A DNA stretch of 64,000 bases from an uncultured Acidobacteriota bacterium (GTDB lineage: Bacteria; Acidobacteriota; UBA6911; RPQK01; JAPXNP01), in contig CAVZRV010000007.1 in NCBI GenBank assembly GCA_963777605.1, positions 352,001-416,000 of the forward strand. Reading direction: 5' to 3'. The notes beneath the pieces are model-generated. The model was not told where the DNA came from. It saw only the letters and a list, made by a program, of their open reading frames with translations, and did not search any database. Shown here piece by piece: positions 4,740 to 7,764 of the stretch (position 1 is its first letter; each line of letters begins with the position of its first letter). Both the position numbers and the translations under genes were made by a program.

Positions 4740-5597
4740 ATGTCCGACGAGCAACAGACGCTCTTCGAAAAAGTCAAGAATGGGCTGGAGAACCTTCTGG
4801 CGTTGAAGGTAACGGATGCGGAGCGGGTTCGCTACGCGGACGACCCACTCAACGTTTTCGGGGAGGATTTTTCCAACCAGCGACCGCTGAGAGTCGCCGC
4901 CACCCTGGCTATTCTGTTCCACATCCTGCTCTTTCTGGTCAGCCTTCCTTTCCTGCAACGGCAGATTTTCGTCCCGACCAAGGAGGTCCTGCCACTTCGC
5001 CAGTTGGCGCTTCCTTCACTTCCCAAAGGCGGAGGGCCGCCCGAACCCCAGGTTCCGAAGCCAAAACCGGAACAGGCCGTCCCGAAGCCTAAACCAGTTC
5101 TCGTGCCAATCCCTGATCCGACTCCGCTCGAACCCGAACCGATCCAGCGCGAGGCCGTTGTGGACACTCCCAAGGTCCTTGACGAAGTTGCGTCGGAGTT
5201 GAGCATGGGTGACATCAGTGCGCCGGCCGGACACGGCCAGGGCGTGGAAGGGACCGGGACCGGGATGTCGAGCGGAGAAGGCCCCGCCGCCGGTGCGGGT
5301 GACGGCGTCTACACGCTGGGCAGCGGAGTGACGAATCCCGTTCCGATCAAGCAGACCACCCCCAGTTACACGGATGAAGCGATCAAGGCCAAGGCCCAGG
5401 GTGTAGTTCTCCTGCAGGCGATCATCCGAAAAGATGGTCGGGTAACCGATTTCAAAGTCATCAGAGGCCTGGGTTTCGGGCTGGAGGAAAAGGCAATCGA
5501 AGAAATCGCTTCCAACTGGAGGTTTCGCCCCGGGACACTGCAAGGCAGACCCGTGGACGTGCTGGCGACGATTGAAGTTCAGTTCAATCTGCGCTGA
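4740..5597 (+). CDS. Energy transducer TonB family protein
   Basis: TM helix with His (ILFHILLF), Pro-rich spacer, C-terminal PSYTDEA..GVVLLQAII..DGRV..GLGFGLEEKA..WRFRPG domain. Confidence 0.9.
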   Translation: MSDEQQTLFEKVKNGLENLLALKVTDAERVRYADDPLNVFGEDFSNQRPLRVAATLAILFHILLFLVSLPFLQRQIFVPTKEVLPLRQLALPSLPKGGGPPEPQVPKPKPEQAVPKPKPVLVPIPDPTPLEPEPIQREAVVDTPKVLDEVASELSMGDISAPAGHGQGVEGTGTGMSSGEGPAAGAGDGVYTLGSGVTNPVPIKQTTPSYTDEAIKAKAQGVVLLQAIIRKDGRVTDFKVIRGLGFGLEEKAIEEIASNWRFRPGTLQGRPVDVLATIEVQFNLR

Positions 5598-5642: not shown

Positions 5643-6758
5643 ATGCACAGACTGGCGTTTACTGTGGGCGCGGGCGTTTTCCTGTTCGACTTTCTCACCA
5701 AGTGGATCGTCAAGAACACGCTGGCACTCCATTACTATCCCATCATCAACGGCTTCGTAACCCTTCAGTACGTCCGCAACGAAGGTATTGCGTTCGGCAT
5801 GTTCCGCAACCTTCAGAACGACTGGAAGCCGGTGATTCTGTCTGCAATAGCGGTCATTGCGATCGCTGTCGTCTGCTACTACATCCTTTCCCTGCCCCGC
5901 ACCGATCGGCTCATGTTCCTGGCGCTCGGACTCCTGCTGGGAGGAATCGCAGGCAATTTTCTCGACCGTGCGATGCACGGATACGTGGTTGATTTCGTCA
6001 CACTCCACATCTATGACTGGTTTGCCTGGCCAACCTTCAACCTGGCTGACACTGCGATTACCTGCGGTGTATTCCTGATCCTCATTCAAACATTCATGTT
6101 CGAGGACGAGCCATCGTCGAACCAGGGTCACTCCGCCGGCGCCTTGTTCCTTCCCCTGCTGCTTCTCTCGCCCAGCCCAGTCGCTACCGACCAGATCGTC
6201 CACCAACTGCAGCGGGAGTATGAACACATCCACTCCTTTCGGGCTGACTTCCGGCAGATCTTCAGGAGCCGGGGGATTGAGCAAACCGAGACCGGGATTG
6301 TTATGATGAAGCGTCCCGGAAAGATGTACTGGGAGTACAAAGAACCGAAACTCAAGATCTTCGTAGCTGATGGCAAAAAGACTTTCTTCTATGTTCCTGC
6401 TGACAAACAGGTGATTGTTTCCAGCCTCGACCTTGAAAACAGTGACTCTCCATTGCTTTTCCTGCTCGGCATGGGAAATATCGAGCGTGACTTCCTGGTT
6501 TCCCTCGAATCGGAGGACGGTCCAGAGGCCGCAGATACGCTCCTGCTCCGTTTGACGCCGAGAACTCCCCAGCCTGAGTTCTCTTACCTCTTGGCTGCGG
6601 TGGAGAAAGAGAAATACTGGATTCGCCGACTGACCGTGGTTGAGCCAATCGGGCAGGAGAACGAATACGTGTTGTCGAACGTCGAGCAGAATGTAGACAT
6701 TCCCGACAAGAGATTTCAATTCAAGATACCTTCGAACGCCGAAGTCATACAGCAGTAA
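5643..6758 (+). CDS. lspA-lolA: Fused signal peptidase II (LspA) and outer-membrane lipoprotein carrier (LolA)
   Basis: The N-terminal ~150 aa carry DFLTK, NEGIAFG, GNFLDR, VVDF and FNLAD (LspA). The C-terminal part carries SFRADFRQ, KRPGKMYWEYKEP, VADGKKTFFYVP..KQV and a terminal FQFKIPSNAEVI (LolA). No stop lies between them. Confidence 0.9.
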   Translation: MHRLAFTVGAGVFLFDFLTKWIVKNTLALHYYPIINGFVTLQYVRNEGIAFGMFRNLQNDWKPVILSAIAVIAIAVVCYYILSLPRTDRLMFLALGLLLGGIAGNFLDRAMHGYVVDFVTLHIYDWFAWPTFNLADTAITCGVFLILIQTFMFEDEPSSNQGHSAGALFLPLLLLSPSPVATDQIVHQLQREYEHIHSFRADFRQIFRSRGIEQTETGIVMMKRPGKMYWEYKEPKLKIFVADGKKTFFYVPADKQVIVSSLDLENSDSPLLFLLGMGNIERDFLVSLESEDGPEAADTLLLRLTPRTPQPEFSYLLAAVEKEKYWIRRLTVVEPIGQENEYVLSNVEQNVDIPDKRFQFKIPSNAEVIQQ

Positions 6759-6768
6759 GGGGTGCAGG

Positions 6769-7764
6769 GTGGTCAGAAAGCGCGCTTATATTTCGTCGTT
6801 GGGAATGCATGTTCCGGAAAACCGGGTCACGAACCGGGAGTTGTCAATGCGGGTGGAAACTTCCGACGAGTGGATTCGTGAACGGACCGGTATCTGTGAG
6901 CGACGGATCGTATCCCCCGGTCAGAGCAACAGCGACCTTTCGGCCAAGGCCGCCCAGAAATGTCTTGCTGCAAGCAAGTGGAAACCGGAAGACATCGACC
7001 TGGTCATCGTAGCGACGGTCACGCCCGACATGATGTTCCCTTCGACTGCATGCCTCGTCCAGGAGAAGATCGGAGCGCTGAATGCCTGGGGCTTTGACCT
7101 CTCAGCCGCCTGTTCGGGATTCATCTTCGCGATGGCAACAGGGAGCAGCTTTATCGAGAGCGGTGCGCACCAGCGTGTTCTGATCATCGGAGCTGATGTC
7201 ATGTCGAGCATCGTCAACCCTGACGATCGCGCAACCTGCGTACTGTTCGGAGACGGCGCAGGTGCAGTCCTTCTTGAGGCCACCGAAGACCCCAACACCG
7301 GCATCGTGGACTCGATTCTTCGAGGGGACGGCTCGGGCGGGAAATTCCTGTTCATGCCGGGAGGTGGGTCCCGCAACCCGGCGTCGAAGGAAAGCATCGA
7401 ACAGGGCATGCACTTCGTTCACCAGGACGGACGCAGCGTTTACAAGTTCGCCGTCAAACACATGTCCGATATCTCCTCGGAGATCTTGCAGAGGAATGGG
7501 ATTCCCGCGGAACAGCTCAAGCTCTTCGTCCCGCACCAGGCAAACCTCAGGATCATCCGTTCCACCGCTGAGCGGCTGGGATTGCGGAAGGATCAGATCG
7601 CCGTCAACATTGATCGTTTTGCCAACACGACGGCCGCAACCATCCCTATATGCCTGACCGAGAGCTATGAATCAGGCCGACTCGCCAAGGGAGACACTGT
7701 CCTGCTCTCCAGTTTCGGGGCCGGGTTCACCTGGGGCAGCATTCTTCTCAGATGGGGAATCTAG
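6769..7764 (+). CDS. fabH: 3-oxoacyl-ACP synthase III
   Basis: AACSGF catalytic Cys, FGDGAGA, PHQANLRI, NTTAA and GAGFTWG. Confidence 0.96.
   Translation: MVRKRAYISSLGMHVPENRVTNRELSMRVETSDEWIRERTGICERRIVSPGQSNSDLSAKAAQKCLAASKWKPEDIDLVIVATVTPDMMFPSTACLVQEKIGALNAWGFDLSAACSGFIFAMATGSSFIESGAHQRVLIIGADVMSSIVNPDDRATCVLFGDGAGAVLLEATEDPNTGIVDSILRGDGSGGKFLFMPGGGSRNPASKESIEQGMHFVHQDGRSVYKFAVKHMSDISSEILQRNGIPAEQLKLFVPHQANLRIIRSTAERLGLRKDQIAVNIDRFANTTAATIPICLTESYESGRLAKGDTVLLSSFGAGFTWGSILLRWGI

Follow-up and report, generated by a model that had tools for sequence, protein, structure and literature searches.

A gene fusion of signal peptidase II and LolA in three families of an Acidobacteriota order

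In an uncultured Acidobacteriota bacterium, signal peptidase II (LspA) and the lipoprotein carrier LolA are encoded by one gene, and this is a real, inherited gene fusion found in 29 genomes from three families of a single Acidobacteriota order. In Gram-negative bacteria both proteins are essential and serve as targets for antibiotics, and to our knowledge they have always been described as separate proteins. A first-pass annotation of the window (the whole stretch of 64,000 nucleotides that was analysed) had read them as a single frame of 371 aa, and had left two readings of the product open, a membrane-tethered LolA and a polyprotein released by signal peptidase I. The results presented here confirm the fusion, both domains passing curated cut-offs, while as to the product the evidence favours the polyprotein, short of proof.

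The fused gene, its two halves and its host

The ORF list gives a single frame that starts at an ATG and, as had been proposed, holds both halves complete (LspA at aa 11-151 and LolA at about aa 183-371; Table 1). The LspA half matched PF01252 (Peptidase_A8; aa 11-151, 1.6e-36, 126 bits against a cut-off of 25) in Pfam and the lspA equivalog TIGR00077 in NCBIfam (112.3 bits, cut-off 73.95), and in a PDB sequence search it aligned end to end with the solved enzymes 6RYO (3.9e-17), 9EMZ and 5DIR. Four helices (residues 2-25, 62-83, 89-112 and 134-152, pLDDT about 83-95) make up this part of the AlphaFold2 model. The catalytic motifs VVDF and FNLAD were rightly recognized at the outset, and their aspartates, D117 and D136, did not vary among 73 fused homologues. 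Alignment to 9emz/5dir matched them to D124 and D143, the dyad of P. aeruginosa LspA according to text excerpts of PMC8048626. By the family cut-offs and the Asp dyad, this half is an ordinary member of the LspA/Peptidase A8 family, with a predicted activity on diacylglyceryl-prolipoproteins and a predicted sensitivity to globomycin. It shares with stand-alone LspA (MEROPS A8; 5DIR, 6RYO, 9EMZ) the full-length alignment, both catalytic Asp, the four TM helices of the model and a score above the equivalog cut-off but, in contrast to the stand-alone enzyme, the fused protein runs on past TM4, where a linker and then a hydrophobic span lead to LolA.

Judged by the same kind of curated cut-offs, the LolA half is an ordinary member of its family, with 96.3 bits for PF03548 (aa 195-361, 2.1e-27, Pfam cut-off 23.6) and 136.3 bits for the NCBIfam equivalog TIGR00547 (lolA, cut-off 112). 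LolA proteins have an open beta-barrel with a helical lid; for this half AlphaFold2 gave eleven strands plus short helices with high pLDDT, and the best sequence match to a solved LolA had a value of 3.2e-12. In the PDB sequence alignment, residue 6 of mature E. coli LolA (1iwl) pairs with residue 189 of the fused protein, so mature LolA should begin at about residue 183-184, just past the hydrophobic stretch. The fused protein therefore has in common with stand-alone periplasmic LolA (TIGR00547; 1IWL, 2W7Q) a complete domain above the equivalog cut-off and an N-terminus at the start of mature E. coli LolA. It differs in that its LolA has no separate start codon and that the signal peptide is not N-terminal but internal, after TM4 of LspA.

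Table 1. Features of the lspA-lolA fusion gene, in window positions
Feature	Position	Strand	Basis
Whole lspA-lolA fusion ORF (371 aa plus TAA stop)	5643..6758	+	ORF list; full-length homologues with both Pfam domains in 82/109 clusters
LspA (Peptidase_A8) domain, aa 11-151	5673..6095	+	Pfam; NCBIfam; PDB sequence matches 6ryo/9emz/5dir; AlphaFold2 model
Catalytic Asp117 codon (VVDF)	5991..5993	+	Invariant in 73/73 fused proteins; aligns with D124 of P. aeruginosa LspA
Catalytic Asp136 codon (FNLAD)	6048..6050	+	Invariant in 73/73 fused proteins; aligns with D143 of P. aeruginosa LspA
Polar linker aa 153-165 (FEDEPSSNQGHSA), presumably cytoplasmic	6099..6137	+	pLDDT <50 at aa 156-164; conservation; unfused kin
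Hydrophobic core aa 166-175 (GALFLPLLLL), h-region of the retained LolA signal peptide	6138..6167	+	Core lengths; AlphaFold2 helix only at 166-174
c-region aa 176-182 (SPSPVAT), presumed signal peptidase I site near A181/T182 or T182/D183	6168..6188	+	1iwl alignment; P0002/P0003
Mature LolA domain, aa 183-371	6189..6755	+	TIGR00547, 136.3 bits; PDB LolA 2w7q, 3.2e-12; pLDDT about 85-95

Could a sequencing or assembly error, peculiar to this assembly, have deleted the stop of lspA or caused a frame shift? Relatives in other families are just one base or one codon away from a fusion. However, the same open frame is present in independent assemblies, namely 82 clusters (ENA, JGI, NCBI and Logan) and 28 other genomes, and a 248-nt contig from a related strain, obtained in another study, spans positions 6096-6343 with 27 substitutions and no gap. 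Moreover, both alternative frames stop inside lolA, and our frame scan recovered the very positions, 6221 and 6304, that had been given for a frame shift at the junction. We consider such an artefact very improbable, and the earlier view that a one-base error is a poor explanation is reinforced by the recurrence of the architecture across 82 of 109 clusters and 29 genomes. Among public sequencing runs, two DNA runs matched with small shares (0.05 and 0.04), yielding short pieces from relatives, and no RNA runs matching the locus were listed.

Upstream of the fusion gene, at a distance of 45 nt, lies a gene for a TonB-C-domain protein (window 4740-5597, +). Downstream, FabH (KAS III; GTG start, window 6769-7764, +) follows after only 10 nt, so that the fusion gene may be co-transcribed with a fatty-acid synthesis gene.

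The host genome (6.73 Mb in 53 contigs, 96.7% complete) contains no Peptidase_A8 match other than the fused gene, which is also its only LolA above the TIGR00547 equivalog cut-off (112). Since it is the sole copy of both essential functions, we infer from established knowledge of the pathway that both halves must be functional. The search for other lolA, lolCDE and lnt genes that the first-pass annotation had recommended yielded one LolA paralogue below the cut-off, one LolCE-like permease (341 bits, just under the cut-off of 362) and one Lnt gene (292 bits). There are two genes for signal peptidase I (LepB), and LolB was not found in this 96.7%-complete genome. The paralogue is a stand-alone protein of 231 aa encoded outside the window (locus L002, 1465-2160, minus strand; contig C7 of the host genome G000, about 22.4-23.1 kb), near a FtsX/MacB-type permease (C7:24131-25174), and it scored 63 bits with TIGR00547 (cut-off 112) and 58 bits with LolA2_flexi. 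Across 41 genomes, weak LolA-like matches of this kind occurred in 12 of 21 with the fusion and 14 of 18 with separate genes, two more genomes having such a match only. Being present in both fused and unfused genomes, the paralogue is not a companion of the fusion. As a separate observation, the host carries three Lgt paralogues above the Pfam cut-off (C11:421958-422713, C27:228123-228836 and C28:79215-79913) versus one LspA and one Lnt.

Distribution of the fusion and its origin from a neighbouring gene pair

A homologue search in 5.8 billion proteins matched 109 clusters, 82 of which (P0001-P0082; ENA, JGI, NCBI and Logan assemblies) carried both Pfam domains, down to about 42% identity; the other 27 had LolA only (25) or LspA only (2). 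The source records assign the homologues to Acidobacteriota, and the automatic annotation of JGI already labels some members 'lipoprotein signal peptidase/chaperone LolA'. In fused proteins of the type found in family f3 (P0043-P0066, 411-435 aa), LolA is followed by about 12 to 60 further residues with little conservation. Two versions, P0046 and P0072 (about 530 aa), terminate in an Arg/Ser-rich segment that occurs twice and resembles read-through into repeated DNA.

In the sampled genomes, a full-length match was present throughout the window's family (f1, 15/15, a count that includes G013, where the match is a contig-end fragment) and in two more families of the same order (f3, 3/3; f12, 2/2). 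The open-frame lengths reported by the genome search can span single stops and would have been misleading for 19 of 20 fetched loci, which were therefore re-checked with our own ORF scan. Across 38 loci, our ORF and HMM scan showed one uninterrupted frame in 21, the window's own and those of 20 relatives (f1 15/15, f3 3/3 and f12 2/2). A class-wide sample of 121 genomes, with matches in 114, added seven f3 genomes, whose full-length matches without internal stops come from the genome search alone, and one f12 genome (G113), for which the ORF scan agrees, bringing the total to 29. Four further candidates (G033, G062, G085 and G117) were rejected as fused, as each has at least one stop between lspA and lolA (TAG in G033), and G018, an unpublished genome, enters the tallies solely as one unfused relative. 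Separate genes in all close relatives had been named beforehand as a finding that would speak against the fusion. What we found is that the window's family is fused in 15 of 15 genomes, and that most other families of the order and the class do have separate genes.

Beyond this clade, no distant LspA-LolA fusions appeared among the best 150 of 25,519 matches in a library of 1.84 billion representatives, where the only LspA-LolA forms were P0071, P0077 and P0112; weaker cases could rank below those 150. The same search returned two other unusual proteins. P0137 (797 aa) combines a BlaR1-type peptidase M56 (18-308), a GWxTD domain (437-527) and LolA (616-782), a different kind of membrane-anchored LolA fusion, and P0124 (358 aa) is a tandem LspA-LspA with two Peptidase_A8 stretches (255 bits in total).

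The loci without the fusion indicate where it came from. In all 36 (17 in the same order plus 19 from the class sample), lspA lay immediately upstream of lolA on the same strand. Other public genomes, mostly of Terriglobia and Vicinamibacteria, gave a different picture, since of 80 loci 67 had lolA with no lspA within 3 kb, seven had lspA only, four had the pair and two a fusion. The adjacency of lspA and lolA is a trait of this Acidobacteriota class. The ATG of lolA overlapped the TGA of lspA (ATGA) in 7 of the 17 unfused loci checked in the same order, and in the other ten the candidate lolA starts were between 14 nt before and 37 nt after the lspA stop. The two genes were in the same frame in 13 of the 36 loci, 11 of them with a single stop between the genes and two with several. 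As this share matches the chance expectation, we make no claim of programmed read-through. After the stop, the unfused kin encode a LolA precursor of the usual kind, in which a basic n-region precedes a hydrophobic core and a c-region of small residues; in locus L150, for example, the TAG directly abuts an ATG, with a typical n-h-c signal peptide after it. Compared with these pairs, the fusion has the same gene order, strand and n-h-c segment before LolA, with a domain identity of 39-58%, and the difference is that in the pairs the genes are kept apart, either by a stop codon or by lying in different frames with an ATGA overlap, and LolA is an ordinary secreted precursor. Among stand-alone LolA proteins of related families, P0092-P0097 have signal peptides with a conserved Cys followed by F(Q/P). 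The VAAC context in P0093 resembles a lipobox, and the others have V or L at -1, which does not fit one.

Given the ATGA overlap or the single in-frame stop seen in the kin, the fusion is reachable by one small mutation: a one-base indel at the overlap or the loss of the stop could have been the route. In three families of one order the boundary between lspA and lolA was lost, which joined the genes and left the export signal of LolA in place as a linker inside the protein. In a tree built from both domains in concatenation (43 rows, 349 columns), the fused genes formed three groups, made up of f1 (15 rows; support 98/99), f3 together with two public MAGs (five rows; support 83/88) and f12 (two rows; support 100/100). 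Its backbone was unresolved, the minimum number of changes was two and the AU test did not reject a single clade (p 0.354), so that one to three fusion events are possible.

The segment between the domains and the fate of LolA

The linker noted in the first-pass annotation, EDEPSSNQGHS (aa 154-164), is followed by AGALFLPLLLLSPSPVA (aa 165-181). To judge from the unfused kin, the polar part (aa 153-165) corresponds to the tail of LspA plus the n-region of the ex-LolA signal peptide, this n-region being acidic in the window's own protein. On the same kind of evidence, the hydrophobic stretch is the signal peptide that LolA formerly had at its N-terminus: we have an internal n-h-c segment that comes after a span with a cytoplasmic end, shares homology with the signal peptides found on unfused LolA and equals them in core length and spacing. 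The h-core had a median of 10 residues (9-14) in 73 fused proteins and 11 (9-14) in 24 stand-alone LolA precursors, and the median spacing from the h-core to helix 1 of LolA was 16 (11-21) in the fused proteins, 15 (12-24) in the stand-alone ones and 16 in the unfused kin. The fraction of the commonest residue was 0.25-0.41 in linker, core and c-region (0.26 in the linker) versus 0.63-0.74 in the TM helices of LspA. Considering this preserved geometry and poor conservation, we conclude that the segment in all likelihood still behaves as a signal peptide.

It is stated in the text excerpts of PMC8048626 that LspA has four TM helices and that its N- and C-termini are both cytoplasmic; the membrane orientation used here is taken from that literature on homologues. 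The join fits such a topology, because LspA ends in the cytoplasm, where a signal peptide begins. The earlier suggestion that the extra hydrophobic segment returns LolA to the periplasm is thus supported, at the level of an inference from the cytoplasmic C-terminus of LspA and the homology to unfused signal peptides. According to the model that we propose, TM1-4 of LspA would insert and the polar linker would remain inside. The old LolA signal peptide (h-core GALFLPLLLL) would cross as a fifth span, carrying the LolA domain into the periplasm, and signal peptidase I would cut near A181/T182. The freed soluble LolA could then take lipoproteins over from the LolCE-type transporter and bring them to the outer membrane, while LspA would be left with one more short span at its C-terminus. 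What such an arrangement would bring is obligatory 1:1 co-expression and co-translational export, with no new enzymatic mechanism; the origin from a translationally coupled gene pair also points to co-expression, and not to a new mechanistic coupling. We believe that cleavage of the polyprotein by signal peptidase I, with release of soluble LolA, is the probable outcome, since a LolA confined to a distance of about 10 residues from the inner membrane would be unable to deliver lipoproteins to the outer one. In favour of a free LolA, too, is that the fused gene supplies the only canonical LolA of the genome, in which two signal peptidase I genes are present.

Two sequence measures were of no use in this respect. 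The (-3,-1) rule for cleavage sites was satisfied in 68 of 73 linkers, but also in 70/73 TM1 and 73/73 TM3 controls and in about 61/73 shuffles, and it was rejected as evidence for cleavage because the controls satisfy it equally often. Similarly, Kyte-Doolittle hydropathy over 19 residues failed to set the linker segment apart from TM3 and TM4 of LspA in the 73 fused proteins (median 1.42, compared with 1.45 for TM3, with overlap for both helices). As the segment is no less hydrophobic than TM3, a stable fifth span is possible.

Accordingly, the segment might be an uncleaved fifth TM helix that anchors LolA to LspA at the inner membrane and couples signal-peptide removal to lipoprotein hand-over. 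This is a reading that we regard as rather unlikely, even though the architecture has been maintained in three families and 29 genomes and the hydropathy of the segment overlaps that of TM3 and TM4. A proline at -3 is unfavourable for signal peptidase I, and the c-region of the window's protein, SPSPVA-T, has one at -3 of the homologous cleavage position; P0002 and P0003 read AVG/T and AIG/T where it reads PVA/T (the slash marks the candidate cleavage point). The acidic n-region of the window's protein also counts against the polyprotein reading. An anchored LolA would, we suppose with similar reserve, need another carrier or a short-range, contact-based relay to complete delivery, and the unfused LolA-like paralogue could in principle serve as the soluble carrier. 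However, that paralogue is not tied to the fused genomes (12/21 compared with 14/18 with separate genes). Furthermore, the spacer between h-core and LolA fold has not been lengthened (16 residues, against 15-16 in free precursors) and, being so short, would presumably keep an anchored LolA from the outer membrane. The segment is also as variable as a signal peptide. AlphaFold2 modelled the full protein with a mean pLDDT of 83.3 and both domains near pLDDT 90, the segment forming only a low-confidence helix of nine residues (166-174) with flanks below pLDDT 50; the pTM of 0.51, with domains that are themselves well folded, means that there is no confident packing of LolA on LspA. A complex prediction for LspA aa 1-160 and LolA aa 181-371 scored 0.01 against a mark of 0.32, and counts neither way. 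Finally, it is established that Lnt and LolCDE act between LspA and LolA in the lipoprotein pathway, and these intervening steps weigh against a direct hand-over.

Another way to obtain two proteins from one mRNA would dispense with proteolysis, LolA being made from an internal start or by re-initiation and the fusion protein being a minor or non-functional by-product. The ancestral genes were translationally coupled, and the linker does contain two in-frame start codons, ATG 6096 (aa 152) and TTG 6144 (aa 168). They are the only ones, and neither is preceded by a purine-rich stretch, which agrees with the original remark that lolA has no plausible start of its own. Besides, M152 is not conserved (V occupies the position in the nearest homologues, P0002 and P0003), the product of ATG-152 would have an acidic n-region and LspA, with no stop codon after it, could even then be produced only in the form of the full-length fusion. 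Internal initiation is therefore improbable in our opinion, and we retain release by signal peptidase I as the working interpretation.

Precedents and biological meaning

The first-pass annotation knew of no characterised example, and a full-text literature search of main texts likewise found no paper on an LspA-LolA fusion. In the text excerpts of PMC9963962 the words 'fused' and 'fusion' do not occur, nor does 'Acidobacteri' in those of PMC9963962 and PMC13721041.

The closest precedent known to us is FbcH of Bradyrhizobium japonicum, reportedly described by Thony-Meyer and colleagues in about 1991 as a cytochrome b-c1 polyprotein that is cut by signal peptidase after export. In FbcH, as in LspA-LolA, a membrane protein of several spans whose C-terminus is cytoplasmic reportedly continues into an internal signal peptide and then a periplasmic partner. 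The two cases differ in that FbcH belongs to the respiration pathway and its processing is reported to have been shown by experiment, whereas the cleavage of LspA-LolA is a prediction. What is new is the union of LspA and LolA and the class-wide, overlapping lspA-lolA pair behind it; the halves themselves are ordinary.

Three families have maintained the fusion with no second copy of either function, which makes it a natural experiment. If the protein is cleaved, it would be a rare bacterial polyprotein of a membrane enzyme and a periplasmic protein, and would illustrate how overlapping genes can become fusions at no topological cost. If it is not, LolA need not diffuse to work, and the textbook model of the Lol pathway would change: lipoprotein maturation and extraction would be physically coupled, and delivery to the outer membrane would take place without a freely diffusing LolA. 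The pairing of lspA and lolA across the class, with its ATGA overlaps, is in itself a new operon-level link between the maturation of lipoproteins and their trafficking.
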